Positions 4,129 through 54,265 of a DNA stretch of 64,000 bases are shown here, piece after piece (positions within the stretch are counted from its first letter, which is position 1; the number at the start of each line of letters is the position of its first letter). The translations under genes and the position numbers were made by a program. The notes beneath the pieces were generated by a model, which was not told the origin of the DNA, made no database searches, and saw only the letters and a program-made list of their open reading frames with translations. The stretch comes from Blasia pusilla (Eukaryota), in contig CM114271.1 of NCBI GenBank assembly GCA_050084515.1, positions 4,030,001 to 4,094,000 of the forward strand. The letters run 5' to 3'.

Positions 4129-5268
4129 TGTTAGAAAGAGTTTTATTAGTATTAAGTAAATTAGCTTATGAAAAGGAAATTCCCATGTTTAAACCTCTTT
4201 ATGATGCCTCTTTTATGCCGGCCCAACTTTAGGAAAAGAGGTAATAGATAAAAGATGGGATTAAAAAATTAAAGTAGTGGGATTGGTGCTTTAATGAAAG
4301 AAAAGCAAAAGTAGTCTTAGTTGATGGCTAGGGTAGATGGGGTAGTTTGGAAGATATGAAGTGATTAAAGGAGGATATTTTGGAAGAGATAAAAGGTAAT
4401 CTACTTGTGTCAAAATCTGATTGGTTAAGCTTTGAGAGGAAGCCATGCGGCACACGATAAGATTAGCCTTATTTCGTACTCTTGTGGATCCCTTGTGAGT
4501 GTATAAAGAGGAGGGACCTTCAAGGGTTCATCACCTTCTACTTCACATCTTGAGTTTCTAGTTTCACTCTTGAGTGGACGGCTTGGGATTGCTTGCTCTT
4601 CCAATGAGATTGGATTATCCCTCTTGGAAGAGTAACTAGACCATGGTCTAGTCTTCGATAGGATTCTAGTGTGTGGTATGTGTGGAGATGAGAGACTTGT
4701 CACCTTAGGGGAAGTTTAGTCATACTAGAAATAGTGGATGGTTTGGATTGTTATTTTCCCAATGAGAGTGGATTATCCTTCTTGGGAGAGCAACTTCACC
4801 AAACCCCATTCTAGAGGAGAGTAGAGGATGTTTGTTAAGTATGGATAGGGATGGAGCACGAGTTGTGCCAAATTTTCCTTTCCTTAACCTGTACCACGTC
4901 AAGATTCTCTTTGTAGATAGACACTGGTTCACTCGCTATCTAGTTCATCACTTTGGGGAGACGTTCATGAACCAAGTCATGCAATCTCCAACTCCGGTGA
5001 TTCTTCCTGTAGTCACATACGGAAGAACATAGGATTATATTTTTTATGTCCTTATATATCAATCCATGGATGTCAATAGGCCTGTTCGAGTAGGGTTTAA
5101 CACAAGTTGCGCTATTTTTCTTGTGTACAAATGTAAAGTAGTTTACAAGGACTTCATAGTAAGGAATTTCGGGATTTCATGTTATGAAAAAGTGATCGCC
5201 TCGGCACTACCATTCGTGATTCCTGTCGTGAGAGAATGGAGGGTTTATATAATAATTTTGTACTGACA
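4129..5268 (+). mobile_element. Probable solo LTR of a Ty3/Gypsy family, containing an internal ORF
   Basis: Starts TGTTAG, ends CTGACA, TATA-like TATAAA at ~4502; homologous to the LTR at 5388-6304. No convincing TSD seen. Confidence 0.6.
4841..5266 (+). pseudogene. LTR-embedded ORF of unknown function, 141 codons, one internal TAG (copy 1)
   Basis: ATG 4841 to TGA 5264-5266 in one frame; only stop is TAG at 5030-5032, which is TGG in copy 2. Confidence 0.7.
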
Positions 5269-34694: not shown

Positions 34695-36281
34695 ATGGCC
34701 AAGAGACGGAGAACTATGAGTGAGATATTAAATAAGGACCGCAACCAAGATTTTTCAGAAGAGACAAGTAGGTCGGGTTCATCAGATGGGAAGGAAGTGG
34801 ATAGAAACAACGCACCTTCAGTAAGCATGGTTGAAAAGAATCAAATAGCGTGGAAGGACATGTAGTATTTGTTCTTTGATTGGATAGAGTTTCATGTAGA
34901 AAGTGTAAGGATTTTATGTAAAGTTTGTGGACAGGGGAAGGGATAAAGTTCCTTTGCAAGGGATGATGCCATAAACTGCAAGGTTTTGGCCTTTATACAT
35001 CATGGCAAATCAAACGAGCACATGAAACCCTCATGGGTTGCTAATATAGGGAACAGGTCTATGGCCAAGGCCATAGCCACTACTAATCGGACTTGTGATA
35101 TAGCTTTATTGATTTTATTTAAGTGTGCTTATTCCATTGGAAAGGAAGCCCGAAATTTTTAAACTTTGTGAAATTTCCGAATTTGTGTAAGCTTTTGATT
35201 TATGTGAATGCCCCGATCACGAGAGAATTGTATGAAGATGAGAAGAGTTGTGTGCTGATACATGCTATTACATCAGCCAAGTTCTTCTCAAAAGGATCCT
35301 TAGTAGAGTGCAAAAGTCTCTTTTTTTTGAATCATGATTGATGAATCGATTGATATCAGCGTAACAGGGCATTTAGTTGTATTTGTGATTTACTTAGAAG
35401 AAGGTCAACTTGAAAGTTCATTTTTAGGGTTGACAGCATGTCCAAAGAAATGCTCAAATGCCATTACCAATAACCTTTTGGAGTTGATGAAGGACTCGAG
35501 ACTAGAGACTACAAAGATGGTTGCTTTTGGGTCTAATAGAGCCTCAAAGATGGTAGGGAGTCGAAATGGGGTAGCCTCGTTGCTAAAGCAGAGGGCAAAT
35601 CTCTTCTTGCTATATGTTCATTGTATTGCGCATAGAACCAATTTGGCCGCTTTGACAACATCCAAAGGACCGACTTGCAAGGATACATCAAGAGAACTAG
35701 ACTCCATTTTGAATAATATTGTTGGATATTTTAGGAGGTCTTCCAAGAGGAATTGTGCTCTTGCAACCCGTGCATGAGAAGTTCATGACTCCCAAAGGGT
35801 AATGAAGAGGTATCATAAAATTCGTTGGTTATCACGTTGGCAAGCGGTTATTACATTGTGTGACTTATTGGAATAAGTTCTTAGGCATTTCAAGGATATT
35901 TCCCCATCCGAGGATGATGGTAATGCTGCTAATTTGTACAATAGGTTGAGATAATTTCCAATGATCTACCAACTATACTTTTTGGTTGACATTTTGTTCA
36001 CTCTTGCTAATTTGAGCAAAGCTTTCCAATATAAATTCCTTGATGTGAGTACCATTGGAAGTATACTGAATTCTGAAATTTCTTCCGTTACGATGAATTT
36101 CGTTCTGGAAAACCATGACTTAAATGCTTCTATCTTCTCAGAGCATATAGGTTATCATCTTTTGCCTGATTTTGGCCCTTCTGACGGATATTTGAAATGC
36201 ATGCAGTATGACATAAGGGGCCAAAAGTTCCATAGCATCGATATAGTGAGAGATTGGACTAGAAAGGATCTGGAGGCCCCT
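34695..36281 (+). pseudogene. hAT (ZNF862-like) transposase pseudogene, C-terminal part deleted
   Basis: MAKRRRTM, MIDESIDIS, VHCIAHRTNLA and YHKIRWLSRWQA align to the 743-aa transposase; stops and frameshifts; after DLEA the sequence jumps straight to the 3' non-coding region. Confidence 0.92.
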
Positions 36282-36474
36282 CTAGGAGGAAGGAGGGAAT
36301 GGACCCTTTTGTAATACTTAGGAGCTTTGTATAATAAACTTCAAGTATTATGAAGGGGTAGGATCCTTGATTCCCAACTAGTGGGAGCAAGTTTGCATGT
36401 GGACAAAGTCCGTGTCCGTGGATATATCCATGTCCGTGACTTATGTCCGTCCTATCGAAAGACTTTTCCGTATG

Positions 36475-37487
36475 TGTCGCGCCCCTACTCTCCTTGAACG
36501 TCAATCTTTAGTGTTGCGGAAGCGTGCGTTCACTAGGTCACGAACTCATCACGAACTCATCGCCGATCTGCACCCAAACACGCATTCTCGTTAGTCGGGT
36601 TTGGGCCAACCGGCGTTCCGACCCACCGAGTCCTCAACTCGGCGTCTCATCAAGCTCAACCTTCCTTAGTTCCTAGCTTCCAAAACATGGCAAGTCCTTC
36701 AAGACTTGGAACAGACTTCCTGGTTAGTCCAGGGATCTGAAACGGCCCTTGCGCGCCTAACGATCCCAACTGTTCAACGGTCCTCGGGTGAGTTCCGAAC
36801 CGAGACCCAAGTAATTGAGTCGCGGTGTGAATTCCAAGAGGGATGTCTAAAATCGCCTCAATGGACTTGGTGCAGGTTTTCCAACCCAACGCCCAAACTC
36901 GCGTTCCGTTCCATGCCCTTGAGCCGCCCCGCGGCGCCCAAAGTGGGGTTTGGGTTCCAAGCACTCTCGGAGACCTTCCCCCTTACTAGTACTTCTGGGG
37001 TTCTCCAATAACCCCTCCCCTTTGGGAAAAGAGGGTCGGGCCCTTCATTGTGGCCCTCAACCCGACTCCACTTATAGTCGTTTTTGGGTCGTATCTCGGC
37101 CGCTGCTTATGCGTTTGCAGCGATCTTTGGTGCGTTTGGACCGGCTCTCCATAAGCTTTCCAACGCACCCTTATTTGCTCCAAAAGCATCTCGGCGCTAA
37201 AAGTTATGGCCATAAATACAGTCGGAAACTCTCAAACGCTAGTGGCGTTCCAAATCCGGATCTTCCCTTTGGCAACCCACTTCCTAGACTCGACTTCTTC
37301 CAAGTTTCATTCCGCGTTTGGTCCAGGTTTCTCAGTCGCGACCATAACAACTGAAACGCGACTCCTCGTTCGCGTCTCGTCTCTTGTCTCCTCTTTGAGA
37401 CACTCCAACGCGCAAACCATCTTAACGTGACCCCGCTAATGTTCCGATGTTCCGCTTGGCACTTGTTTGGTCATGAGGGTCGCGACA
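36475..37487 (-). repeat. 3' LTR of the chromovirus
   Basis: TGTCGCG...CGCGACA; nearly identical to 42826-43838. Confidence 0.97.
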
Positions 37488-38178
37488 CTCACCCCTCTTT
37501 TAGAGGTTGATGCCCTCATCAACACAAACTTTTATTATGTCAAGTCTCCTGGGCAGCCTACCCCTTGACATTGAATTGCGTTCTGGTGGCTAACCCGCAA
37601 TTCCTCTTAGTCTCTAGTTTTCGCTTTGCCCCACTTAGAATTATGAGCCTCTCCTCTTCGATAAGCCTGGACTAGTTCCAAGGAACTAACCTATCAAATA
37701 AGCTAACTAAGTGTGCAACCTTAGACTCTTTCGACTCATTACTGTAAACATCACACCTGTTTACCTGGTCCACAAATCGTACTACTATTGGGTTGCTCTC
37801 GTATTCGACTTAGGCGCGTCACTAAGTTTACTTATGTGGCCACAAGTAAGATCACCCCAAGCCCCAAGACAGACTTCATCTGCCCCGCCGACGCTAGGGC
37901 GAGCCCGAGTGTAATCCAACACAAGGTCCTGTTCTAGGTGCTTATCCACATACAAGCTCTCACCTCAAATACTCCTTGTCTGTCCTCTTGTCGTACATTC
38001 TAAGCCTATGATGAACGACTCATAGCCATGCACTACCACATACAAATTGCAATCAACACTGGTATCGAATCTCCAAATCCATACACTCCTTTATTGCAAC
38101 ACTAGCATATTCTAGTTACAACGGCCTTCGGCCCAAGATTCCACTGGTTACAAGTCATGTCTATAGCTTCTCCTCGTA

Positions 38179-41100
38179 CTAACGTATGTGCTTCGCTTGT
38201 GTTCGCTTGAAGTCACACAACAACTCTTGCGCGTGTTCCAAATCCGCCTCCACAATCCAAGTCGCCTCCATCACATGGTAGCCCTTCCATTTTACCAAGT
38301 ATTTATACTTGTTGGCCCGACGCCTCGAACGTAAGATGGTCTCCACCTCAAACTCCGGCTCTTCATTTACGATGACCGGGTGCGGTCTCACCACCTGTCT
38401 CCGCTCGAAACGTCCATTATCTTGAAGATATTTCTTCAACAATGACACATGAAAGGTCGGGTGAATCTTGAACTCGTTTGGCAGCCTCAACGTATACACA
38501 TCCTCTAACGGGTTTGCCACAATCACATATGGTCCAGCATACTTGGCAGACAGCTTCGCAGACAACTCTTTCGGAAGAGTGAGATTCTTTACACTCAACC
38601 ACACTTGTTCTCCAACTTGGAATCGTACTTGGCGCCGACTCTTGTTAGCATGCTTAACGTACCTCATTTGAGCCTTTGCAAGACTTCGCCTCGCGCGCTC
38701 TTCTTGTTCTCACATCTCTACCAACAAACCTTCTGCCGTCGCTTGTCGTGTTCGTGCCAATGTAGTACCCTTCGAAAGGGCTAGATCAAGAGGCCCTTCT
38801 GGCTCTCGTCCATTTGCCAGGAGAAACGGAGATTCTCCAGTTGCAGAATGCTTGGTTGAGTTGTAGCAGTATTCCGCCATGCTCACCACTGACCCAATCG
38901 CGTTGATCAAAGATCGACATAATTCCTTAAATCTTGATTCACGATAGAGTTTACCTTTTCATCGGTCCATCCGTCTATGGGTGGAAAGCCGTCTTGAAAC
39001 TCAGCTTGGTCTTAAACCTTTCGAACAAGTGCTTCCGAAAGCAACGGTAAACTTTGATCCCGATCTGAAACAATGCTCCTCGGCAAACCATGAGCACGCC
39101 ACCAGCTATCGAGGAATAGTTGCGTTGCGGAATCCACCGTCGCACGAATCTCACCAACTTGCTAAACCGATCAACAATCACAAGTATAGCGTTGTATCCT
39201 CAGATTCGGAAGACTCGTGATGAAATCCATACTCACACTTTGCAAGGGTCCTTCGGGATCGGCAAGGGATGCAGCAAGCCCTGTTTCTTATCATAAGAGA
39301 CTCTATTCGCTTGGCAAGTCACACTGGTCTTCACATATTGAGCAACATCCTCTTTCATGTTGGGCCAAAAGAACCGCCGACCACAGCTAGCGAGATTTCT
39401 CTCCTTTATGTCCGCCAAGGGCCCGTCGTGACATTCCGCTAACACCTTGGTTCGCATCCTGCCTTGCCCTACATAGATCCTACTCTATTTGAACCTTAGT
39501 AAACCGTGCCTCAAACTTATGTTGGCCACCTTCTCACCCTGCTTCAACTTCCCCAGGTATACCCCTGCTTGAGCATCCTTCATATATCCTTCACGAATCC
39601 GTCTTTCCAGATCTATTTCCTTAGGGAACATTGCTCTCAAGACCTGTGTCGTCGACGGCATGTGTTCCTCCTTGCGACTTAACGCATCTGGAATCACATT
39701 ATCTTTACCTGGCTTATGAATCAACTCAACATCCATCAGCGCCAAGGTATCATGCCATCGCAATTGTTTTGGTGTCACTCGATCCTGGGTCTCAAAATAC
39801 TTGAGTGATATATTATCGGTGAATACTCGAGTCCGGTGGAGCCCTAGATAATGCCGCCACTTCCTCAAGCAATGTACCACCGCGAACAACTCTTTCTAGT
39901 GAGTAGGCCATCTCCTTTCAATATCGCTAAGCTTCTTGCTCTCATATGCCACCGGTCTCCCTTCTTGCACCAACATTCCTGCAACCGCGAAATCACTAGC
40001 ATCGGTATGCACTTCGAACGGTTTGTCGAACTCCGGCAGCTTTAACACTGGTTCTGCGATAGAATCTGCTTCACTCGGTTGAATGCCTTATTAACTTCTT
40101 GGGTCCAAGTCGTGTTGGCAAATTTTGCTGTCCAATCCGTGAGAGGTCTCACAATTCCCGAAAAGTTTTTCACATAAGTACGATAAAATTGCACCGCACC
40201 TATGAACCTCCTCATCCCCTTTACAGTGGATGGGGGTTCCCACTCGGAAATCGCCTTTACCTTTTCCATGTCTGGACTGACGCCATCTGCACTCACCACG
40301 TGCCCCAAGAATTTGATCTTTCTCAAACCGAATTCGCTCTTCTCTACATTCGTATATAGCTGATTTGCCCTTAGCTTAGACAAGACCGCTCTCACATGTC
40401 GAAAGTGCTCCTCTAGTGACTTCGAATAGATAAGTATGTCATCGATATAGATGATAACATACTCATCCATTTCCTTGTGAAAAATGGAGTTCATCAATGT
40501 GGTGAACGTTGGAGGCGCGTTACATAGACCGAAAGGCATCACTACAAACTCAAAGGAACCGTATCTCGTCCTGCACGTAGTCTTCTCCACATCCGCCTCG
40601 GCAATCCGATCTGGTAATATCGACTTCAAGTCAATCCTACTGAAATATCTCGCGCTGCCGACCTATCAAAGAGATCATCTATCCTCGGAAGAGGATAATT
40701 GTTCGAACCGTCACTTTGTTCGAAGTGCACGGTAATCAACACTGACCTCATCTTTCCATCCTTCTTCTTTACAAAGAGAACAGGTGCTCCATAAGGCAAC
40801 TTGCTAGTCCTAATGTAACCCTTTTCCAAGAGCTCACTTAACTCCTTTTTCAACTCAAGAAGTTCCTCCTGATTCAACCTATATGGTGCTTTTGAAGGCG
40901 GTTGGGAACCGTGTATGATCTCTATCTTATGATCTACGGCTCTATGCGGCGGCAATTCAATCGGAAGCTCATTTGTCAAGACATCCTCAAACTCCTTGAC
41001 CACTTCCTGGAGTGGTTCTGGGACTCCCCTTGAAGCAAAGTGTCCGATCTCTGCGATATCGCTTGTAGCCTCCTCCACTTGTCTCATCAAGCAGAGAAAT

Positions 41101-42682
41101 CCATCCTCCAACTCAGTCATGCTCCTCCTTGTGATCGAGTTCACCAACTCCATTTTCGTTGGAACTTCACGGACCAACCGCACCTGTAACCGTTTGCCTT
41201 TTAGCAAGACGCTCAACCTCAATGGTCGGCGTCTTAACTCCACCTCATACGCATCTAGGAATGTATTCCCCAAAACTCCGTCAATGCCATCCATTTCGCA
41301 CACAGTGAAATTCTCCTTCAACTTGAATACCCCGCATCCTACTGTCAAACCCAAGACCAAATCAGAAGTCCGATGAGACTTGCCTCCTGCAAATCCCACT
41401 CGAATGGGCTCGTCCACCTTAGAGGTAGACAACCCTAGTTCCTTCATGATTCTCGGGCTTAGGAAGGAGTGCGAAGCACCTGTATCCACGAGCAACAAGA
41501 CATCGCGATCAGCAATCTTGGATCTTAGGTACACCAAATTGTGCGCCCTCTTGGTGACTTGAAGGGCGTCTCTCGAGATCGCCGCCAACAGATGCTTAGC
41601 AGCAAACGCAATCATACTCCCATTACTAACCTTCGGTTTGAACACCCTTTCGACAGTGCCCGGTTCGCCACGGTTGTAGCATACGACCTTGCCGGTCCGT
41701 GACTTTGAGTGTTGTCCTCCTTTCGGTTTCGCATGAAGTTCCACTCGTTTTCTTTTTGCCGGGCGACGACTCTCCTGGTTCGTGCTGGCCCCCACTCCAG
41801 CCTCTTTTGAACGCCTCCTTATTTTTCGACTTCTTCGAAAAAACTTTTGGCTCGAAGGGTTTCTGGGTTTGGACCTCATCGTCCCCAATCCGCTCCGCTA
41901 GCTTCGTAAGGTCCCGCGAGTCTCCGGCAACGCGTCGGCATTCGGTAAAGGGCCTTTTCAGCGCTCGGCTTGAGTCCACTAATGAAGATAGCCTTCTTCG
42001 CGTGTTCATCCATCTTTGGACTAGAAGTCAGCTTCGCACTAAACTCCCTCACATAGGCGCTTAAGGAATCACTCTGCCGCATCCGCACGCATTCCACCGT
42101 GTCACGCAACCCTTGGTACTCCGGAGTGAACCGATCCCCAATCAACTCCTTGAACTCCTCCCAACTCAGAGGTGACTCGCCTCCCAGATATTCCTCTCGT
42201 TGAGCGGTCCACCATTGTAGAGCATGATCCTTCAGGAAAGTAACGGCTACCGTTACCTTGTCCTGCTCAGCAGCCCTCTGCGCCTCGAAGTACAGTTCCA
42301 GTTCCGTAAGGAAATCCTTCACTTTCCGCAAGCGCCCCACTCCCGTGAATGGCATGGGCAGGTCCGTCTTGCAGAGTTTTTTGCCCGCACTCGGGTTTTG
42401 AGTGGCCTCTAACTCTGCAATCCGCTTGCTTTGCTAGGACATCTGCTCCACCAACACCTTCAACAAGTCCAACGTCTGGCTCGACTCCGTCCTTTCCCCT
42501 GAGTTTGGACCCACTAGCCCCGCGGAAGGAGTCGCCTCTAGGACGTCCTCACGATTGGCGTTCAGCTCTTCGGGGGTCTCCGTCTCCTCTATAGCTTCAC
42601 GGTCCGGCATTGGTTCCTCTCTTGGTTCACGTCGCTTGATTCGGCGCTTCTTGGGTTGTTCTCCCTCGATCGCCATTTCCAA
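38179..42682 (-). pseudogene. gag-pol polyprotein with C-terminal chromodomain, frameshifted as assembled
   Basis: At least nine ORF pieces in gag-PR-RT-RH-IN-chromodomain order; chromodomain EFEVETIL...YLVKWKGY...ATW. Confidence 0.92.
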
Positions 42683-42825
42683 GCCAACTCACTCAGATCT
42701 CCTCCTCGTTTCTTGCGTCCCTCCTCGAGCGTCCGAGTCTAGCCGCTACCTTGAAATTTCCCAAGCGTCACGCTGATCCCACGACCCCAAGTTCTCACTC
42801 ACCAAGGATAAGCTTTGATACCACT

Positions 42826-43838
42826 TGTCGCGCCCCTACTCTCCTTGAACGTCAATCTTTAGTGTTGCGGAAGCGTGCGTTCAGTAGGTCACGAACTCAT
42901 CACGAACTCATCGCCGATCTGCACCCAAACACGCATTCTCGTTAGTCGGGTTTGGGCCAACCGGCGTTCCGACCCACCGAGTCCTCAACTCGGCGTCTCA
43001 TCAAGCTCAACCTTCCTTAGTTCCTAGCTTCCAAAACATGGCAAGTCCTTCAAGACTTGGAACAGACTTCCTGGTTAGTCGGGATCACGAAACGGCCCCT
43101 TGCGCGCCTAGCGATCCCAACTGTTCAACGGTCCTCGGGTGAGTTCCGAACCGAGACCCAAGTAATTGAGTCGCGGTGTGAATTCCAAGAGGGATGTCTA
43201 AAATCGCCTCAATGGACTTGGTGCAGGTTTTCCAACCCAACGCCCAAACTCGCGTTCCGTTCCATGCCCTTGAGCCGCCCCGCGGCGCCCAAAGTGGGGT
43301 TTGGGTTCCAAGCACTCTCGGAGACCTTCCCCCTTACTAGTACTTCTGGGGTTCTCCAATAACCCCTCCCCTTTGGGAAAAGAGGGTCGGGCCCTTCATT
43401 GTGGCCCTCAACCCGACTCCACTTATAGTCGTTTTTGGGTCGTATCTCGGCCGCTGCTTATGCGTTTGCAGCGATCTTTGGTGCGTTTGGACCGGCTCTC
43501 CATAAGCTTTCCAACGCACCCTTATTTGCTCCAAAAGCATCTCGGCGCTAAAAGTTATGGCCATAAATACAGTCGGAAACTCTCAAACGCTAGTGGCGTT
43601 CCAAATCCGGATCTTCCCTTTGGCAACCCACTTCCTAGACTCGACTTCTTCCAAGTTTCATTCCGCGTTTGGTCCAGGTTTCTCAGTCGCGACCATAACA
43701 ACTGAAACGCGACTCCTCGTTCGCGTCTCGTCTCTTGTCTCCTCTTTGAGACACTCCAACGCACAAACCATCTCAGCGTGACCCCGCTAATGTTCCGATG
43801 TTCCGCTTGGCACTTGTTTGGTCATGAGGGTCGCGACA
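42826..43838 (-). repeat. 5' LTR of the chromovirus
   Basis: Adjacent to the tRNA-Met PBS; about 10 differences from the other LTR by eye. Confidence 0.97.
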
Positions 43839-45451
43839 GTATGGGCCTCACCTTTCCCTTCTTTCTCATTCCCTTTACTTGCCTTCGTGTTCCATATTCC
43901 CCCATTTCTTCCTCCCTCCAGCTCCACTCCCTCACTACTCCTCTCATCCTTGCTTTGCCTTCCATCATGGACTAAAAGTGTGGGTGCCATCTCTTGGAAC
44001 CCAAGCACATGGACATATCTAGACTTGTTCGTTCATGTCCGTCTTAAGGAAGGACTTGTCCGTTTTTTGTGCAACCATGGATGGGAGGCCTGGCTAGGTT
44101 CAATTCCTACCAAGGATATAATTGTAAGAAGAACAAAGGAGGGGAAAAGAGTAGGCTAATGAGAGATTGAATTTTGAAGGCCAAATGTATATGATCCTTG
44201 GCTCCTAGGGGAGGGAGGCTTGGCCAGGTTCAAATCTTGCCGAGGATGTGAAAGGGGTTGAAGACTTGAAGTTGTGAAAAAAATGTTGTAAATTGAAGAA
44301 GTGTTAGTATTTAAATTTTGTGTTAGAATATGAAGGCAAGGAGGCCGGGAAAATTTTGTTTCGACACAATTAATTGGCAGCCGGAAATTTTTTGGCCAGC
44401 AAAAGAAATTCCAAAAATGTGCCAAATTTATATTTGTAATATTTACCTGAATAAAAAATTAAAAGAGATATTTTCTGCTAATTTTATTATTTGCCTTTTC
44501 TTACCGAGACCCTAAACATAATATCCGTGACTGTTTTACGGGTTTCTTGAAAAAAACTCCCCGGACCTCGGTAGAAACTAGTGATGGGTGATAATGATAA
44601 ATAATTCAAATCACTACATAATTAGTAACCCGTGTGAATTAATAATTTGACCTCCAAAACGAACTCCTAAAGGTGGCACGCTCCGAGTTGTAGCTTTAAG
44701 AAATTTCAATTCAAAAAACCTCTCTATTATGTTGAACCAGTGCGGGGAAGTAATTAATTAATATATACGTGTAGGGCCGTAATGAAATTTAAAGCTAAAA
44801 ATATTTTAAACCATGAATGCTCTATTGGTTTCGGTTTAGCCCATTGGGCATTAATGGTGTCCTCTACGGATGGCGTGGAATCGTGGGTTCATGACAGGTT
44901 ATGAGTTCGCAAGGTCCCTATTGGTGGAGCATGCATTCACAACTGCTGACTGTTTGTCTGGACTCTGGAGTCCTAAACGTCGAGACCCCAGACTCTGGAC
45001 TCTGAACCAGGGTTCGGGGAGTTTTTTTTGAATTGTCGGACTTTTACTGGTAGTATTGATATTATTTCGGATATTATTTTTTCGTGCCGGTCGCAGCCGG
45101 AAGATTGGTAGCTTTTCAATTATTTTCTGGAAATTATTTTTGCGGTCGGTTAAAATCCGAAAATTTTTTTTTTTCTTCTTTTGATTTCCGGGGCTGATTT
45201 TTTTTCTCTGCCAATTTCCGACCGAACTTTGTGAAGCTGCCCAAAAACCGGCTGTTCCTAACTCGGCCGGATTTTTTTTTCTTCACACTCCTTATCTTCT
45301 CCACAACCCTGCAATGCTCAAAAGCCGGAAATATTTTTCTTCACACACTTCTTATATTCTTCACAACCCTGCAATGCTCAAGAACCTGATCCTTGATATC
45401 AAATTCTTCCCTTGAGTAGACATGCAATCTTCTAATACAATAAAAAAAATC

Positions 45452-45557
45452 ATCCTTGGCAGGAGTTGAACCTGACAAAACTCCCACCAGTTGGGAGCCA
45501 AGGATCCTACCCCTCTTGAATACTTGGAGCCATGAGGCTCCAAGTATTCAAAAAGGG
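45452..45557 (-). other. Conserved predicted RNA structure: 22-bp hairpin followed by an anticodon-less tRNA-like fold
   Basis: Hairpin 45557-45510; then ATCCTTGG-CTCCCA(ACTGG)TGGGAG-TTTTGT-CAGG(TTCAACT)CCTG-CCAAGGAT; homologues in the decayed hAT show compensatory changes. Confidence 0.6.
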
Positions 45558-45591
45558 TCCTACTTTCTAAAACCTAAACGACCAAAATCTT

Positions 45592-47823
45592 CTAATCTAG
45601 AGGGGTTTTAGTAACTTCAACTCCCTCATTCGGGGAGATGTATCTATCAGGATTTGCAAACAAATACCTAAAATGAGCAGAATTCTTCCACAATATCACA
45701 GACTCAGACAACATCTCCTCAAAATCAGAAGAAGGTCCTTCTAAGGCAATCCTCAAGACAACATCTAAATACTTTGTGGTCAACCTATTCCGAGATTTAG
45801 TCTTGATCATGTTTTGAATGGAAAAGGCTCTCTCACATATGGCAGTACTAACACATTGGACTCTGGCTATATTTGCCAAAATCAACAAATTAGAAAACTT
45901 ACATTGCAATGAGGGACTCCAACTTACCATCGCCCACAAGTCTCTGAAGTTGCGATCCTTCCACTCGGTGGTAGCCATCAGTTTGAAAGATTGGAACTCT
46001 TGCTTAACAATCGAAGAATTAATGATAGCCGGTTGCAACACACCCCGTGATGGCAATTGATTTCCAAAAAACCCACAAAAATCATCTAAATCTTTACACC
46101 CCCAACTATTTAATCCCACTTGCCGAGAAGGCATGTGCAAAGGATTCAGTACTCTCATAGATCCAATCAAGTTATTATCTCGGAATCGCTCCTGTAAAGA
46201 TGTACACACACTTTCAGCAAACCTTTTCTGAAAGAATAATGCGGCCTCTAAGTCCCTTCCCGTCTGATCTCGAGACATAGCAATGCTATGAAACTTGTTT
46301 CCCCTCATCTCGGATTGTAAACGACGAAGATCATCACCAGGTGGCCCAAAATCAGGAAGTATATGGTAACCTGTATCTTCAGAGAAGGTGGAGGCATTCA
46401 AGTCATGAGTTTCCATGACAAAATTCATGGTAATTCTAGCTATCTCCGAATTCACAATGCTCCCTATAGTGCTAACATCCACAAACTTATACTGAAAAAT
46501 CTTACTCAGATTTGCAAGCATGGAAAGTATGTCAGCCAAAAAGTACAGTTGATAGATCATTTGGAATGATCTCAACCTGTTAAATAAATTTGCAGCAAAC
46601 CCGTCATCCTCTGAAGGGGAAATATCTCTAAAGTATGTCAGTACTGATTCTAGAGAATCACACAAGGTGGTCACAGCTTGCCAACGGGATAACCATCTAA
46701 TCTTGTGGTATCTCTTCATAACTCGTTGGGAGTCATTGAATTTTTCCTGCAACGATGCTAGAATTGTTTTCCTCTTCGACGACCTTCTAAAGTAACCAGC
46801 AACTGCATTGAGAATCGAATCGACTTCAGAGGAAATGGACTTGCAATCAGGAGCTTTTGCAGCTGATAAAGCCGCCAAATTTGTTCTATGGGCTACACAA
46901 TGAACCGAAAGAATATAGGGATTTACCTTCTGCTTCATTTGGGAGGCCACCCCTGTCTGGCTACCTACCATTGTAGAAGCTCCATCTGAACCAAATGCTA
47001 CCATTTTGGAGAATTCTAACCCTCCATCTTTGATTAGTTGCAACAAACCTTCAGTAATAGCATTGGAACATTTTGATTCGCAACGAAGTAGTCCTAGAAA
47101 ACAACATTCTGCCAGACCTTCTTCAATGAAGGTGGCAAACACAACCAAATGCCCTGTTATAGATATGTCAGTTGACTCATCGATCATAATGCCAAAGAAA
47201 GGAGAGGCCTGAACTCTCATAAGACTTCTTCTAAACAGAACTTGGCTAATAAAGTAACACATCTCACTGCAACTCTTCTCATCTTGATATAAGTCTCTGG
47301 TAATAGGGGCATTGATCGATAACATTAACTTACAAAGGCTCGGAAATTTCAAAAATGGCATAGTTTCCTTTGCTAGGAAGTACGCACACTTAAACAATGT
47401 CAACAAAGCAATTTCACAAGTGCGGTTGGTGGTGGCAATGGCCTTGGCCATTGACTTCTTACCCCCATGTGCAGCCCATGCAAGCTTGATGTGCTCGTTG
47501 GACTTGGCATGATCGGTGAAAGTTGAAACCTTCAGCTTTATTGCTCCATCTCTGGCAAACACATTCTTCCCTTTCCCCTTCTTACAAACTTTACAAAAGA
47601 TTCTACCAAGAGTTGAGTCCCACTCAATCCAATCAGACATCGAATACCATACATCCTTCCATGCTACACGAACTTTTCCAGGTACATCCGCACTGCTTCC
47701 TGACGGAGGCGGCTCATCTCTGTCATCAGATGAGCCAGACAATGCGATAATGTCAGGCTCGTCATTGATTTGTTCCTTACCTAGAAAGGATGTCATTGTC
47801 TTCTGTCTCTTGGCCATGTGCAC
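45592..47823 (-). CDS. hAT transposase (ZNF862-like), 743 aa, intact
   Basis: N-terminal Zn finger (FCKVC...H...H), catalytic D (IDESTD), D (SDGASTM), CxxH (CVAH), RW, E (CERAFS) and hAT dimerisation region. Confidence 0.95.
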   Translation of the reverse strand: MHMAKRQKTMTSFLGKEQINDEPDIIALSGSSDDRDEPPPSGSSADVPGKVRVAWKDVWYSMSDWIEWDSTLGRIFCKVCKKGKGKNVFARDGAIKLKVSTFTDHAKSNEHIKLAWAAHGGKKSMAKAIATTNRTCEIALLTLFKCAYFLAKETMPFLKFPSLCKLMLSINAPITRDLYQDEKSCSEMCYFISQVLFRRSLMRVQASPFFGIMIDESTDISITGHLVVFATFIEEGLAECCFLGLLRCESKCSNAITEGLLQLIKDGGLEFSKMVAFGSDGASTMVGSQTGVASQMKQKVNPYILSVHCVAHRTNLAALSAAKAPDCKSISSEVDSILNAVAGYFRRSSKRKTILASLQEKFNDSQRVMKRYHKIRWLSRWQAVTTLCDSLESVLTYFRDISPSEDDGFAANLFNRLRSFQMIYQLYFLADILSMLANLSKIFQYKFVDVSTIGSIVNSEIARITMNFVMETHDLNASTFSEDTGYHILPDFGPPGDDLRRLQSEMRGNKFHSIAMSRDQTGRDLEAALFFQKRFAESVCTSLQERFRDNNLIGSMRVLNPLHMPSRQVGLNSWGCKDLDDFCGFFGNQLPSRGVLQPAIINSSIVKQEFQSFKLMATTEWKDRNFRDLWAMVSWSPSLQCKFSNLLILANIARVQCVSTAICERAFSIQNMIKTKSRNRLTTKYLDVVLRIALEGPSSDFEEMLSESVILWKNSAHFRYLFANPDRYISPNEGVEVTKTPLD

Positions 47824-48334
47824 TACTGGACACTGGGCAACTATTAACTACAATCTGAGAACAGAAGAAGGGCTACTCCACGCGAATAAGTTAGAACAGA
47901 GGAGTTGCAATGAGTTCGAGAACTTCTCGAGGAGAAGTTGTGGCGGCTGTGTGGCTTGGAAAGGCCCTGGTTAATGTAGGCAATCTGCGGAGCAGCAGAG
48001 CAAACCGATGCAAACTTGCTGCTAAGGAAAGAAAAAAAAGAAGTACATCCCGGGTGCTTGAGAGAACACAGTCCGAGAACAATCAAGGGCAGCAGCCTTT
48101 CCAAGAGTGACGGACTTGCCGCACATTGAGCAGCCCGGCCCCCACCCTGATCCCTAGCACCAACGCTACCAAGCCCACCGAAAATGACGAAGACAAGGCT
48201 GCCAAACAGCGTTGCGAGCAACAAGCTTGCAAGATTGGGTTTAGGGTTTTAGCAACGAGATGGAGCGCCAGGAGCGGACTTGCAAAAGAATTCGCCAAAG
48301 GAGAACTGGACGGATTTCGCAAAAGGAGAACTGG

Positions 48335-48775
48335 ACGGGAGCAGAGCAGCAAGGCGGAGCGCAAGGCGGAGCGCAAGGCAGAGCAGCAAGGCGGAGGCAC
48401 AAGGCAGCAAGGCGGAGCAGCAAGGCGGAAGCACGAGCTCAGGAGCAGCAAGGAATCGCAATCCGCGGAGCAGCAAAGCAGAGCAGCCAGGCGGAGCAGC
48501 AAGGCGGAGGCGCAAGGCAGCAAGGCGGAGCAGAAAGGCGGAAGCACGAGCTCGGGAGCAGCAAGGAATCGCAATCCACGGAGCAGCAAAGCAGAGCAGC
48601 CAGGCGGAGCAGCAAGGCGGAGGCGCAAGGCAGCAAGGCGGAGGCGCAAGGCAGCAAGGCAGAGCAGCGAGCAGCGAGCTCGGGAGCAGAAAGCAGCGAG
48701 GCGCAAGGCACAGCAGCGAGGCGCGAGGTCGGGAGCGGAAAGCAGCGAGGCGCAAGGCACAGCAGCGAGGCGGAA
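48335..48775. repeat. Low-complexity tandem repeat block inside the hAT (GCAGCAAGGCGGAG-type units with higher-order duplication)
   Basis: Very T-poor plus strand; recurring units and a duplicated ~130-bp block containing CACGAGCTC...AAGGAATCGCAATCC. Confidence 0.9.
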
Positions 48776-49458
48776 CCGCGGAGCTCTGGACTTTGGAGTT
48801 GCACTCTCCAGGGAGGGAATGCGAATGAGGCCCCATGGGCCCGCAGCGGGGTCTCCACCGCACTGCGGGCCCCCAAGGGGTTCGAGACTCCTAGTTGGGA
48901 ACCGTCCGATCTGGATCGGACGGGTGTACTTCTTGTGCCCTAAGCCCTAAATGAGCGGACGGTCTAGATCGAGCCGTCTCCTCCTTATCAAATCGTGACC
49001 ACTCATAATTTTCCGGCAGCCGCAACTCCAGGCGGCCAAAAACCGTCCGCCGGTAATCGCACTCCAGCCACTAGCCGGTTTCCCTACCCGGACGGCTCAC
49101 TTTCCGACAACTTCCTGCCGGGAAACGGTCAAATTCCGGCGCCTGGTTGGCTCGCCTGCCACTTGCCGGTATGTACCGAATTTCACCCGGAACTGCTGCC
49201 GGGAAGTTCTTCTGATCGTCGGAATTTTTTAATTTCTGCCGGCCGGGGTTACTCGTAACCCCGGATCTCCCCGAACATTGCTCTAAACGTCCCAAGTCGA
49301 GCCATCGCTTCGCCGAGCGCAAATCGAGCTCGCCGGTAGAATTCGCAAACGGAGAAACGAACCAGTGCGCAGTGCCACTTCAAAAGACGCAACATTCATC
49401 TCGTGGACACCCGAAAGAATAGCCAGGAGCTGGTGGGACGGCCAGAGGATTCCTTCTC

Positions 49459-49935: not shown

Positions 49936-50034
49936 GAAGTGCATCATTTTCCCTATCTCGCATGCTCTTCGCTCATATGTCCTCACCCCCCTTGAATTAT
50001 TGGAGGTCCGGCCGTCCCACCAGCTCCTGCCCAT

Positions 50035-50466
50035 CGATTCGGGTGTCCACGTTAGTGGTGAAACCTCTTCGAATTCGGGTGCCAACGTAAGTAGGGAGAC
50101 GTCTAGGAATTCGGGTGTCAGCGTTATTAGTCAGACGTCTAAGAATTCTTGTGTCCAGACTAGTAGTGAGACGTCTAGGAACTCGGATGTCCACGCTACT
50201 GGTGAGACGTCTAAGAATTCGGAAGTAGACTTTGTTCGTGAGACGTCTGAGAATTCGGGTGTCCACGCTATTAGTGCAAGGTCTAAGAATTCGGGTGTTC
50301 ACGCTAATAGTGCAAGGTCTAGGAATTCGGGTGTCTACGCCACTAGTGAAACGTGTGGGAATTCGGAAGTCGACTTTCTCAGTGAGACGTCGAAGAATGC
50401 GGATGTCCATGCTGATAGTGAGACGTTCATGAATTCGGGTGTGAACGTTATTAGTGAGTCCGGGAG
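50035..50466. repeat. Minisatellite of 12 x 36 bp, approximate consensus GAATTCGGGTGTCCACGCTANTAGTGAGACGTCTAR
   Basis: GAATTC-like unit starts every 36 nt (50071, 50107, 50143 ... 50431) with no indels. Confidence 0.95.
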
Positions 50467-50722
50467 TCGACGTTCTCAGTGAGCATGCGTGTAGGATTTC
50501 CACGAATGCGAGCAGGAATTGGCAAGGAGATGGACGAGTGCGCGTGGCTGTAGTTGAAAGAAGGTGTGCAGACAGACTAGACTCAACGGCGTTTCGTCGC
50601 GAAGCATCGGGTGCTCACTTACCTGACTTACCTGACGTCGTCGGCTTCGTTCGCACGGATTCGTCCCACGCGAGCGAACCGGGAGCCGGTGATGTTGTTG
50701 TTGAGACGGAGTTGGTGACACC

Positions 50723-52465
50723 TTACCCGTACCAGCGGTTGTCGCGATGGAATCGCGTGCTGATGAGCTGCTCAAAGAACTCCTCTCCCAAGTCGCCTAG
50801 ACAGGTTTTGAAAACCGCCATCGTAAGCTTGCGAGTTTCCTCGTACTCTACGCTGCTCCTGCCATGCTCGCGTTCCACGTCCGCCAGCAGAGTGGACGAG
50901 ATTTGCATATTGGGGATGCTGCCGCCGTTGATGGAGTCGTTGATGAGCAGGAGCATGCGAAGGGATGCGATCTTCTCGTCGGCAGCGTCTAGAGCACGAG
51001 CTCGAGCTAGACGAGCGAGATAGGCCTCTATGAACGAGGCGCGCACCCAATTCTTGTGCTTGTCGCTCAGCTCCAGGGATTCGAGAGCCGTCTCCGCGAG
51101 CTGCACTGTGTCAGCGAGATGGCTGATTGCTGGCAGCTGCTTCTGCAAATCTTCTTTGGATCGTGGTGGGGTGACGGCGAGGAGCCGCTGCTGAAACGTG
51201 CTTATCACTTCCTTCAAAGAGCGCACGAGGGTTTTATCTAAGAGGCATCTCTCACAACAGCACTCGAAATTCCAGCTATCGAGGAGCCTCTGGCGATTCG
51301 GATCCAGAATGTTCGTGTATGCGACTGTCAGCTCGTCTCCGGCAGAAAGATCGCGACCCGCACGAACGAACATGGCCCTGCCCACGAACATCCCGATACA
51401 AGAAGGTGCACAAGAGTGATTCATAAATGAAGGAAGAATCCACAGTCCACTCGATTCTTGGGACGGATCCCTGAGAGCTTGTATTCGGTCCATCATTCCG
51501 TCGCCGAATGCACCCGAATTCACCGCTAGTGCTCCATTGAAGGCGTTGCGAGAAATCCTGCTGTAGATATCTTCGTAGTGGAGCTGCACTGCGGAATCGG
51601 GATCAGAATCACTCGGGGTCCATTCACTTCCGGGGATGAAGAGCTCCATGGGTGGAATCTTCGGGACCTCCTTGGGATCAGAGCTTTTGAGATGGTAAAG
51701 CTGATGCATGATTCTTGGAGATGATTTCGCTAGCTTCATAAGCGCCTCAGTGAAATCCACTTTCCAGTCGCGCATTTCTACCTGCTCCTTTTCAATTTCA
51801 CAGCCACTTTCCCAGCTGCTACTCGTGGGCGTGTTATAATTCTTTGCGGCCGTTTTCCAGACATGGATCGCAAGGACATTACTCACGACGAGAAGATGGC
51901 CGTGCCGGACGGGGTGCGTGACGAACAGCCCTCTTCCCCCACGAGAGCACCAACGAATCTCCACAGGACCCACGTAATCGCTGCAAGGGGGTGGCGGCTC
52001 ATTGTTGAGGAGGTAGAGGGAGAGGTCAAAAATCCCATCGTGAGATTGTCGATAGCTCGTTTTGCTCTCTTGCAGTGCGGAGGCGATGATCTTGTTTTCT
52101 GGGCTCAGATTCAGAGCCGCACTGAAAGATGCACAAGCGTTTTCGAATCGCTGGAGACCATGTAGGGCCTTGCCTTTGCGGTACAAGCTGTTGAGGTGAT
52201 GGGAATCGAACTCGAGCGCAGTGTCGGCATCGACCAAGGCATCTTCGTATCGTTTCAATCCCAAATATGCCTGTGCTCTGCTGGAATACGCCAACATCAG
52301 AGTGACGTTGTGGGGAATTCGCAGTGGCTCGTCTTGGCCCAGGGTGATGCACTTGGTGTATAGATCTATCGCTTCTTGACATTTCTTTTTCGCTAGAAGT
52401 CCGTTAGCTTCCAGGCGACTCCGTTCCAGCTCTGCACCGGCGGAGTTTATGGTTGTAGACTCCAT
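50723..52465 (-). CDS. ATXR1: TPR + SET domain lysine methyltransferase (ATXR1/SDG35-like), 580 aa, intronless
   Basis: N-terminal TPR repeats; SET motifs GGRGLFVT, SFMNHSCAP, GDELTVAY; post-SET FECCCERC. Confidence 0.85.
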   Translation of the reverse strand: MESTTINSAGAELERSRLEANGLLAKKKCQEAIDLYTKCITLGQDEPLRIPHNVTLMLAYSSRAQAYLGLKRYEDALVDADTALEFDSHHLNSLYRKGKALHGLQRFENACASFSAALNLSPENKIIASALQESKTSYRQSHDGIFDLSLYLLNNEPPPPCSDYVGPVEIRWCSRGGRGLFVTHPVRHGHLLVVSNVLAIHVWKTAAKNYNTPTSSSWESGCEIEKEQVEMRDWKVDFTEALMKLAKSSPRIMHQLYHLKSSDPKEVPKIPPMELFIPGSEWTPSDSDPDSAVQLHYEDIYSRISRNAFNGALAVNSGAFGDGMMDRIQALRDPSQESSGLWILPSFMNHSCAPSCIGMFVGRAMFVRAGRDLSAGDELTVAYTNILDPNRQRLLDSWNFECCCERCLLDKTLVRSLKEVISTFQQRLLAVTPPRSKEDLQKQLPAISHLADTVQLAETALESLELSDKHKNWVRASFIEAYLARLARARALDAADEKIASLRMLLLINDSINGGSIPNMQISSTLLADVEREHGRSSVEYEETRKLTMAVFKTCLGDLGEEFFEQLISTRFHRDNRWYG

Positions 52466-54265
52466 GAGAGCTGTAGGATGAATCGATCATAAGTCAGATC
52501 TGTCGTCTACAATTCCTCTCTCTGTCTATGGCACCTCAAAAAGAAGTTTGCACCGTAAATACAAGAGATAACAGGACCTGCGAAAACTTCTCAGGGGACC
52601 TCAAGAGGACCGGCGCTTCGATGCTTCGGATCACATCTTGTCTCCATCTCCGAGGCGGTCTTAAATTCTATGCGAAAGATTACGCAGCATCATGTTCGGT
52701 CCAAAATACTCGTTGTTGATGGTGAGATTGACATTATGACAGGACTTAGCGTGCCGTCGCACTTTGATGGCGATGACAGTGGCAGAACATCTGCCATCGA
52801 TGAACCGTCGCCTCAATGAGCTGCGACGTTATGATAGCCCACCATCGTGCGCACTGAAATTCGGGAACTCCTGATTGGATGTTACTGGGAGTGGATCTCT
52901 CAGCTGCTACACCAAAGAGCAGAGTCAATCGCAAGAGGATAGACTAAGCACTCGCATTGCTACACTGGCGAAGAGTGATCAAAGAAACTTTCACTCTCGT
53001 CAATCCGGAACGCCAAAGGAAGCTTTGGAAATGGTTCGCGAGGACCTTACGTTGCGATTGTAGATTGCTCAAAGAATAGGGTTCTTCCGCACCTCAGAGA
53101 AAACACATTAAAGCTAGGAATCCCGCCATCGATTGCCGATGAAAGGTACAAAACTTCACAGAGTATCTCCACTAATCCTAAGAACTGTCAGACAGCGACT
53201 CTACAGTGAGCTCCTTCCGCAGCTCGTCATGCAGCAATCAATGGCAGGAGTCCTGCGATTGATTGCAGCTGTAAGCGAAAATTTTCCCAGCGGATGTCCT
53301 TTGATCCTCAGAAAGCAAATAGGAAATCATCATGCGAATTGAACTGGCTACGAAACTTTGCTGACTCCAAGAAAATCGAGCCTTCCGCCACCACTCGAGC
53401 GCATTCAGAAATAGGAACGCTGAGATCTCAGGTTACTGACGTAGAGCCAACAGACGTGTTCCGCCATTCCTAAACTATCGTCGTCAGAGAGACGGAAGGA
53501 AAAAGTCTCTCCCACACCTACAATCGCAATCCGCAAACCCACACGAAACAGCAGGAGAGCTGTGGCGCAGTGATAATCGATTAGCTCACAGTCACAGGCG
53601 TTCTTCCCTGTTCTCGACCGAACGAACGCTCGCAGTTTCTTCCATCGTAATCTTCCGGAAGCCAACAACCTCTAACGATAAGAGACCAGTGGGTAGCCCG
53701 TGCCACGAAGGACTAATGGAGGAGGACACATTTGCAAATAAAGAAGGCGCTCTTGTGATTTTTCTTTAATCACGAGACTCTCCAAACAACGAATGATTCC
53801 ACACATCCGTAGACATATTAGTCAGATTCAATCGAGTCACGTTTCTTTAGGTATTTTTATTTTGGTGTAGTTAATGTTGTTCATGTTTTTCATGAGTTTC
53901 AAGTGGCAAGGGTTCTTCATTTTCCTTCCCAAAGGGGCTTGTGTAGCCTTGGAGTTCTCAAAAAAATTAATTATTTAGATGTGTTCTCCCATCTCTTTTT
54001 ATTAAAATTTTGTTTCCGATGGTGATAGTTTTTTTTGGAACTCCCGCACCAAAAGAAGACCGAATCCACAAACGACTTAGTGCGAAGATTTGCTTTCCAT
54101 GTATTTCTTGTGATTTTTTCTTAAATATTTCTCATGGCTCCTTGAAGTATCTTAAGATTGTATTTTTCAAATAATGATGATACACATGCCAAAAAAATTT
54201 CCTCCCAAGTGTTCCATATGTCCAATTTTAATAATAATGCTATTTTTTTCATTTAAGAATATTTA

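Follow-up and report, generated by a model that had tools for sequence, protein, structure and literature searches.

A hairpin and an anticodon-less tRNA-like fold behind the transposase gene of a hAT transposon: a candidate RNA-processing signal

Why would a DNA transposon carry a fold resembling a transfer RNA (tRNA) without its anticodon arm just behind its transposase gene, and does that fold act in the RNA, in the DNA or not at all? The question is raised by a 64,000-nt stretch of Blasia pusilla DNA (GCA_050084515.1, contig CM114271.1, positions 4,030,001 to 4,094,000 of the forward strand), which is called the window here and in which positions are counted from the first letter. On its minus strand lies a complete hAT element, in which a long hairpin and a 54-nt tRNA-like unit stand side by side downstream of the transposase open reading frame (ORF). 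The fold is maintained in distant relatives, on the transposase strand, by changes on both sides of its stems, and hairpin and tRNA mimic are very probably a selected sense-strand RNA element of the hAT transposase transcript. We tentatively favour the reading, with a probability of about 0.45, that the unit is a tRNA-type processing signal in this transcript, by analogy with mascRNA or the plant mitochondrial t-elements.

The structure and its host element

The element and its module comprise the following features:

45008..49280, minus strand: complete hAT element, 4273 bp, delimited by inverted ends and target duplication read by eye
45592..47817, minus strand: transposase ORF, intronless, 743 aa (listed from GTG at 47823; first ATG at 47817)
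45509..45558, minus strand: hairpin of 23 bp including the closing A-U pair, loop TCAT (4 nt), two G-U pairs on the sense strand only
45452..45505, minus strand: tRNA-like unit, 54 nt, anticodon-less fold, beginning 86 nt past the stop codon
45505-45498 with 45459-45452, minus strand: acceptor stem of the unit, 8 bp, ATCCTTGG/CCAAGGAT
45497-45481, minus strand: D-like arm of the unit, CTCCCA-ACTGG-TGGGAG, 6-bp stem and loop ACTGG
45480-45475, minus strand: linker of the unit, 6 nt, in place of the anticodon arm
45474-45460 (loop 45470-45464), minus strand: T arm of the unit, CAGG-TTCAACT-CCTG, 4-bp stem
45442..45449, minus strand: T8 tract, 2 nt past the unit (GA between)
45022..45441, minus strand: 3' subterminal region from the unit to the inverted end, with direct repeats and CCGG/AATT-rich motifs

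Along the minus strand, the stop codon TAG (45594-45592) is followed by 33 nt, the hairpin, an AGG linker, the unit, GA and the T8 tract. The minimum-energy fold of 45560-45441 is exactly hairpin plus unit (-63.9 kcal/mol, z = -7.98), and none of 200 shuffled sequences is as stable. The hairpin folds at -41.0 kcal/mol as the sense strand versus -32.5 kcal/mol as the antisense strand. As modelled, the unit has the shape of a tRNA that lacks only its anticodon arm, i.e. residues 27-43. The original prediction, which was made from the letters of this stretch, had described an 8-bp acceptor, a D-like hairpin, a T arm and a 12-bp stack, all of which are present in sequence and fold as described. 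Other details had to be adjusted: the hairpin, given as 22 bp at about 35 nt past the stop codon, is there and has 23 bp with its closing A-U pair at 33 nt; the AGG of the proposed TAGG linker is unpaired and its T belongs to the paired end of the hairpin; and the T tract behind the unit exists in this copy and is absent after the other four units of its family.

The element is taken to span 45008-49280 because inverted ends and a flanking duplication are read there. The inverted ends CAATGTTCGGGGAG (49280-49267, minus strand) and CAGGGTTCGGGGAG (45008-45021, plus strand) are alike at 12 of 14 bases, and the two copies of the 8-bp target duplication, GTTTAGAG (49288-49281) and GTTCAGAG (45007-45000, minus-strand reading), at 7 of 8. 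The unit is internal to the element: 86 nt separate it from the stop codon and 444 nt from the 3' end. In Pfam, the transposase matches zf-C17orf113 above the cut-off (45.3 bits) and DUF4371 and Dimer_Tnp_hAT just below theirs (23.9 and 20.4 bits), and full-length homologues of the 743-aa protein with about 55% identity bear PF14291, PF25431 and PF05699 (DUF4371, zf-C17orf113 and the hAT dimerisation domain). Among named transposase relatives, those of the liverwort Riccia sorocarpa (50%) and of Adiantum (35%) rank best. Terminal inverted repeats, an 8-bp duplication and hAT-type transposase domains make this a hAT element.

The element has further repeats and small folds. Two 59-nt direct repeats (45271-45329 and 45331-45389, 81% alike, repeat family D6) lie amid CCGG/AATT-rich motifs in the 3' subterminal region and, judged from their sequence, are likely transposase-binding repeats. 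In antisense orientation to the transposase, 48872-48899 of the plus strand can form a T-arm-like minihelix (GGGG-TTCGAGA-CTCC between CCCAA and TTGGG) that is preceded by a 9-10-bp hairpin; its distance to the 5' end of the intact element is ~380-410 nt. The sense strand at this site reads TTCCCAACTAG, which is identical to the D-arm 5' strand plus loop of the split unit of a second copy described below. GC-rich, GCAAGGCGGAG-like tandem repeats with units of ~13 and ~113 nt occupy 48323-48782 in the 5' region, upstream of the ORF.

Relatives, pairing and strand

Relatives were collected as 47 loci from one transposase-alignment scan of metagenome contigs; scans of the genome_contigs and viral_contigs collections found no hAT relatives. 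Two models were used: R1 includes the window family, and R2 was built from four distant units only, without the window family. Loci with a model match at E < 0.01 were counted as unit-positive, and 264 kb were searched overall. The window family consists of five units, namely W1 (the unit of the intact element), W2 and W3 in the window, and those of loci L002 and L012.

The other window units belong to a diverged hAT copy:

34846..36387, plus strand: 5' part of the diverged copy, with ORF remnant, hairpin and 5' half of a split unit
36303-36359, plus strand: hairpin of the diverged copy (hairpin region z = -4.78)
36363-36387, plus strand: 5' half of the split unit, up to the D-arm end
44088..44117, plus strand: 3' half of the split unit, with linker, T arm TAGG-TTCAATT-CCTA and acceptor 3' strand
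44194..44247, plus strand: second tandem unit (72.4 bits with R1; three G-U pairs; loop TTCAAAT)
44248..44570, plus strand: 3' subterminal region and end of the diverged copy, read from the sequence

The ORF remnant (34846-36278) is 69% identical to 47666-46243. The copy is an internal deletion from which ~680 nt of coding sequence, the C-terminal third of the ORF, are gone. It is placed tail to tail with the intact element, and its 3' end CTCCCCGGACCTCG (~44557-44570) matches that of the latter. The halves of the split unit join across a 5-bp duplication, GGGAG (36383-36387 and 44083-44087). They are separated by a 7.7-kb Ty3/gypsy chromovirus (36388-44087, minus strand) with gag, protease, reverse transcriptase, RNase H, integrase SH3 and chromodomain, which is inserted exactly at the D-arm end and whose long terminal repeats (LTRs) measure ~1.35 kb by spacing. 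The two units of the diverged copy are 76 nt apart, and folding detects no upstream hairpin at the second one (44194-44247, z = +0.64).

Additional genomic copies are represented in DNA reads. At 92% likeness, run X13 covers the module at depths of 41 and 29, the adjoining coding bin at 15 and the downstream sequence at 13, falling to 5; the 3' subterminal region is at ~2-7 and the flank outside the element at ~1. At 45446 and 45578, the consensus of the loose read ends is recognisably the same hAT flanking sequence in diverged form. Because of this two- to threefold depth and the diverged-hAT loose ends, the module is regarded as the best-conserved stretch locally and not as a separate repeat. 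An A>G change at 45552, found in 15 of 23 DNA reads of other copies, converts a G-U pair of the hairpin into C-G. In three X13 reads, 45506 is joined back to 45451; some genomic copies therefore contain two units in exact tandem, 2 nt apart. In six DNA reads, a retrotransposon junction occurs at 45481, the same unit position as in the split unit of the window; the LTR is similar, not identical, to that in the window, and the copies are closer to the intact element. Such junctions come either from a composite that was amplified or from insertions that hit one site repeatedly.

The transposases of L002 and L012 share ~51% protein identity with that of the window, and the units start 69 and 63 nt past their stop codons (86 nt in the window). 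Their hairpins have a sequence of their own (10 bp with a bulge and 13 bp, respectively) and stop 0-3 nt short of the acceptor. In T arm and acceptor 3' strand, these units hardly differ from that of the window; the D stem is CCTTC(A)/(T)GAAGG versus CTCCCA/TGGGAG. In the 5' region of L002, a second GGTTCAATTCCTG (~395) lacks a convincing acceptor, and no end of the element was found; it was left as chance. Throughout the window family, 25 nt lead to the D-arm end, followed by a linker of 6-7 nt and a 12-bp stack of acceptor and T stem, the 8+4 bp of which are present in all five units. The T loop is TTCAA-N-T in 5/5 units and the D loop contains GG in 4/5 (AG in W2). The 21-mer pattern of T arm and acceptor occurs three times in the window, against an expectation of 0.00.

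Distant loci (L019/20, L014-16, L027 and L044), with transposase fragments of 25-45% identity, carry a fuller cloverleaf on the transposase strand, composed of the acceptor, a 4-bp D stem, a short extra hairpin at the position of the anticodon arm, and the T arm. The unit of L027 is decayed, with 3/4 cells of the T stem and 2/4 cells of the D stem unpaired. R1 scores the window unit at 85.2 bits. R2, which had seen none of the window family, scores the window unit (W1) at 39.1 bits (E 2.4e-9) and recovers those of L012 (3e-6), W3 (1e-5) and L002 (5e-4), as well as six further loci (L025, L026, L028, L032, L033 and L035). Its matches at E up to 5 are all on the transposase strand (19/19), and all except one lie 3' of the catalytic motif (18/19); the remaining match, L047 (E 0.16), lies upstream of it. 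At E < 0.01, units are present in 15 of the 47 loci, each time on the transposase strand. They start 1355-1994 nt past the HC[VI]AHRTN codons in the loci and 1389 nt past them in the window. Pfam detects no transposase domain in 46 ORF scraps upstream of the distant units, which are decayed copies; the tie of these units to the transposase is therefore made through motif distance alone. Weak R1 matches (E 0.025 to 6), including some on other strands or in other places (window 27675-27719, L021 and L041/42), were treated as noise.

Two sequence features flank the acceptor. A leader (G)UAGG stands directly 5' of it in otherwise unalignable families (window 45509-45506, L019 ~4702-4706, L014 ~4179-4182, L027, L028 and L044), and a loose GUUA stands 3' of it in several distant units. 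Leader and trailer could be a cleavage-site context or could contact each other.

Base pairs of the window family were counted by script, because the MAFFT alignments A3 and A6 shifted the D stems of L012 and W3 by one column. The five units have 89 pair cells, of which 81 are Watson-Crick, 6 G-U, 1 A-C and 1 other. Between the window copies and L002/L012, D-stem pairs 2-4 have changed on both sides, and the first T-stem pair appears as C-G, U-G and U-A across the family. In the four distant units, 88.0% of pair cells are paired versus 76.9% in shuffles (0/500 reach this value), and six of the eight acceptor pairs change on both sides. An alignment of 12 distinct units, fitted to the model structure and in this respect favouring pairing, has 89.7% of cells paired versus 69.5% in shuffles, 17 of 21 pairs changed on both sides versus a shuffle mean of 10.8, and a covariation score of 0.573 versus 0.236; for each measure 0/500 shuffles reach the observed value, and controls with slid partners pair at 40-52%.

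The substitutions also carry information on the strand. The four hairpins add 10 G-U pairs and no A-C mismatch (in minimum-energy folds, A-C shows only as an internal loop), which brings units and hairpins to 16 G-U versus 1 A-C; for a subset of the G-U pairs, 13 G-U versus 1 A-C, p is ~0.0009. Sense folds are more stable than antisense folds by 4.8-8.6 kcal/mol in all four modules. Since strand-symmetric mutation is expected to yield equal numbers of G-U and A-C, the G-U excess speaks for sense-strand RNA. These observations point to selection on a sense-strand RNA and not on a DNA cruciform or protein-binding box.

Compensatory changes had been part of the original prediction, and they extend to very distant relatives in both the 4- and the 12-sequence alignments. 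Its two homologues are located at 36363-36387 plus 44088-44117 and at 44194-44247 and differ as it had stated (T stem TAGG/CCTA, G-U wobbles, loops TTCAATT and TTCAAAT); the halves it had joined do belong together, and the interruption is the 7.7-kb retrotransposon and not a simple gap. Placement in sense just past the transposase ORF was borne out in the window, L002 and L012. As every match at E < 0.01 in the 264 kb lies in a hAT 3' region, the motif is assigned to the hAT family, and a dispersed head of a short interspersed element (SINE) is rejected.

What the structure may do

The unit is not a canonical tRNA gene, as it has no anticodon arm, is not called by a tRNA finder and stays below the Rfam threshold. 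ARAGORN predicts no tRNA gene in the window and none at the units of the 47 loci, and Rfam at gathering threshold gives no match in the window. At a relaxed threshold, the tRNA family RF00005 aligns end to end over 45451-45505 with 14.9 bits (E 1.5), below its threshold of 29. The mascRNA-menRNA family RF01684 does not match the window unit at E up to 10; it is the best tRNA-type Rfam match of the L019 unit, which has the same arm layout, at 14.1 bits (E 2.9), far below its threshold of 42.5. When genome_contigs and viral_contigs were scanned for the exact 21-mer that joins T arm and acceptor 3' strand, only four bacterial contigs and one viral contig matched. An ARAGORN tRNA-Arg spans it in three of these five, L048, L049 and L051, from the Candidate Phyla Radiation (Dojkabacteria and Saccharibacteria); in the viral contig L052 a tRNA-Arg lies a few bases beside it, and L050 has no tRNA call. 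Because the exact 21-mer occurs in bacterial tRNA-Arg genes, the 3' half of the unit is ordinary tRNA sequence. The segment GGTTCAA-N-TCC of the T arm fits what we take to be the B-box consensus in 5/5 window-family units; by eye, the A-box region fits the corresponding presumed consensus poorly, and a run of at least four T follows in 1/5 units. A U-rich internal loop or A-rich tract, as in a triple helix, is absent from the hairpin, which is fully paired according to the fold and by eye. A microRNA precursor was rejected for the hairpin in general (best Rfam match 29.8 versus 80 bits, and only 10-13 bp in L002 and L012). A home-made descriptor of acceptor and T arm gave 65 matches in the loci versus 10-32 in shuffles, mostly AT-rich, and was dropped as noisy.

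RNase P, RNase Z and the CCA-adding enzyme read the 12-bp stack of acceptor and T stem together with the elbow formed by the D-loop GG and the T-loop TTCAA. In the processing reading, host nuclear RNase P (protein-only PRORP in plants) and/or RNase Z would recognise this stack and elbow in the transposase transcript. The RNA polymerase II (Pol II) transcript would be cut between 45506 and 45505, 86 nt past the stop codon, and a tRNA-like RNA of ~55 nt would be released. In the window family, such a cut would leave the upstream mRNA with a stable hairpin and a 3-nt overhang at its end; this hairpin could protect a 3' end without a poly(A) tail. We favour this reading because tRNA dimensions are kept, because the unit always stands in sense behind the ORF and because it abuts a stable hairpin in the window family. 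A precedent for 3' structures in such transcripts is given in two reviews, in which intronless hAT transposase mRNAs carry RNA-stabilising elements for nuclear expression (ENEs; PMC7583470, PMC13541005).

Several results weigh against the processing reading. Two close relatives have no unit, L008 over ~370 nt past the stop codon and L004 within ~100 nt; in the remaining close loci, the sequence stops too early downstream of the ORF to show one. Among loci with at least 2000 nt after the motif, the unit is detectable in 11/25 and not in the other 14/25, or in ~9 families with and ~10 without it when near-duplicates are grouped by eye. The adjoining hairpin is confined to the window family; in the distant units, the acceptor has no hairpin directly beside it. 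Single-sequence folding is unremarkable in 6/8 regions folded (z -1.77 to +1.18), and the 12-unit alignment leans towards pairing by its construction. T loop and acceptor 3' strand are conserved in sequence beyond pairing, which fits a DNA-level B box too. The deletion copy, devoid of an intact ORF, keeps two units, and the unit is exactly duplicated in tandem in three DNA reads; both count against the reading because a signal serving the transposase mRNA alone needs neither. The T tract, a would-be terminator of RNA polymerase III (Pol III), is not conserved, which weakens its part in the proposal. An mRNA without poly(A) would be expected to be poorly translated, and plant RDR6 prefers such RNAs. 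Lastly, RNA runs X16, X17 and X18 of the organism place 6, 4 and 0 reads on 44950-46450. Depth bins at 45460-45561 suggest that two X16 reads lie on hairpin and unit, in which case they would span the proposed cut site uncut. A T>A change at 45517 assigns these two reads to another copy, and either precursor RNA or DNA carry-over could explain them.

The two X16 reads, which going by depth bins cover hairpin and unit contiguously, would suit a unit that stays uncut in the 3' untranslated region (UTR) and, as a tRNA mimic, binds tRNA-binding proteins for export, translation, stability or cell-to-cell movement of the mRNA. Plant RNA viruses offer a parallel for the first three roles in their 3' tRNA-like structures, and mobile plant mRNAs for the last in their tRNA-like motifs. 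This explanation shares all structural and strand evidence with the processing reading, and the concept of tRNA-like motifs in the UTRs of plant mRNAs is established (PMC8166872). We nevertheless consider it unlikely. A fold so well suited to tRNA-processing enzymes should be cleaved by them; the DNA encodes no CCA, and conservation does not extend to the 3' trailer; and PMC8166872 reports dicistronic tRNA-mRNA transcripts in 0 of 17 moss and 0 of 11 liverwort libraries, the closest named transposase relative being that of a liverwort.

The three other explanations place the function in the DNA or deny one. The unit could be a small RNA gene with an internal Pol III promoter, or its B box a TFIIIC site acting as chromatin boundary; the presumed B-box fit, conserved in sequence in 5/5 family units, and the T8 behind the unit of the intact copy agree with this. 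We hold it improbable, because acceptor and D stems, which a bare TFIIIC site could do without, are kept by changes on both sides, and because the T loop TTTGATC of L025/L026 breaks the B box while the cloverleaf is still scored. Moreover, a run of at least four T stands close behind in 1/5 units, the A-box region is by eye unlike the presumed consensus, and a boundary element could lie on either strand, whereas all units lie on that of the transposase. If an ancestral hAT once captured a tRNA gene or SINE head, which has since been inherited without function, this would account for the absence of the unit from about half of the related loci, for decayed copies such as L027 and for the presence of the exact 21-mer, as ordinary tRNA sequence, in true bacterial tRNA-Arg genes. 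Such a relic is quite improbable in view of transposases that are only 25-51% identical and UTRs that cannot be aligned, across which place, strand and 88-98% of the pairing are kept with changes on both sides; neutral decay would also give equal numbers of G-U and A-C instead of 16:1. Very improbable, finally, is a cis element of transposition, i.e. a transposase-binding box or subterminal cruciform, even if the deletion derivative keeps the unit and a T-arm-like minihelix lies on the other strand near the 5' end. Transposase-binding motifs are usually found in both ends, whereas the unit is 444 nt from one; G-U pairs, which are mismatches in DNA, are tolerated and A-C is not; and stem sequences vary while pairing is kept.

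The functional tRNA mimic of the original prediction is thus partly supported: the conserved structure is well supported, and the activity is putative. The processing reading can be taken one step further. By analogy with MALAT1, a plant hAT clade might end its transposase mRNA through a PRORP cut independent of polyadenylation, yielding a structure-capped mRNA and a mascRNA-like RNA of ~55 nt; in this full form we regard it as doubtful.

Surroundings and known systems

The remaining features of the window lie apart from the module. A 36-nt tandem repeat array (50001-50494) just beyond the 5' end of the intact hAT overlaps long open frames on both strands. It is followed by a probable host gene at 50726-52486 (minus strand), a single-exon gene for a TPR and SET domain protein of 587 aa. 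Another probable host gene, with a weak LURP-one-related match, lies at 888-1952 (minus strand), and a retroviral-type protease fragment at 7544-8119.

Like mascRNA and menRNA of MALAT1 and NEAT1_2, the unit has a small tRNA-like fold with a reduced anticodon arm, lies in sense near the 3' end of a Pol II transcript and has a stable structure before it. In the vertebrate cases, the preceding structure is a U-rich triple helix with an A-rich tract, whereas the window has a plain hairpin. Moreover, mascRNA and menRNA derive from vertebrate long non-coding RNAs; here, the carrier is the predicted mRNA of a protein-coding transposon in a plant-type genome, known from DNA sequence. The reviews PMC7583470 and PMC13541005 set MALAT1 and MEN-beta apart from all other stability elements, those of transposons included, by their tRNA-like ends made by RNase P.

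RNAs of hAT and other transposons are described as carrying ENE or double-ENE triple-helix elements (PMC7583470, PMC13541005). These resemble the unit in being structured RNA just behind an intronless hAT transposase ORF and in being thought to stabilise it. They differ in mechanism: the U-rich internal loops of ENEs clamp the poly(A) tail, and the window has a perfect hairpin and a tRNA mimic with no such loop.

The presumed B-box fit of the T arm is shared with tRNA-derived SINEs and B-box-only TFIIIC sites. Unlike SINEs, the unit has no independent dispersed copies in the 264 kb, and the loose ends of the DNA reads are hAT flanks. Plant mitochondrial t-elements are mimics of acceptor and T arm in mRNA UTRs which act as RNase P/RNase Z signals and for which the anticodon arm is dispensable. 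They are organellar, whereas the unit of the window is carried by a transposon of nuclear type, in which a target duplication and a nested LTR retrotransposon are seen. The tRNA-like structures of plant RNA viruses are 3'-terminal, end in or receive CCA and are often aminoacylated. They share with the unit the mimicry of tRNA by the RNA of a selfish element in plants; unlike them, the unit is internal in the DNA, with ~440 nt of element sequence following and a trailer that is not conserved.

Whatever its function, a fold of 54-77 nt behind transposases of 25-51% identity is a new annotation landmark for this hAT clade. Should tRNA-processing enzymes cut it, transposons would, like MALAT1 and NEAT1, use the tRNA machinery to form mRNA 3' ends, which would show how an intronless selfish gene escapes the polyadenylation-linked surveillance of its host and would provide a compact natural plant module for poly(A)-free mRNA ends or small-RNA release. 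If true, the MALAT1-style reading would have no earlier example among DNA transposons or plant nuclear protein-coding mRNAs, and it would add a second solution beside the ENE triple helix for stabilising intronless transposase RNA. Full-text searches, judged from listings and the starts of abstracts, found no tRNA-like structure in a DNA transposon, and a mention in Tycowski 2016 or Zhang 2017 is possible. Judged from sequence, the carrier, a hAT DNA transposon, thus appears to be new, and the kind, namely tRNA-like processing or mimicry modules, is one already known from the systems compared here.

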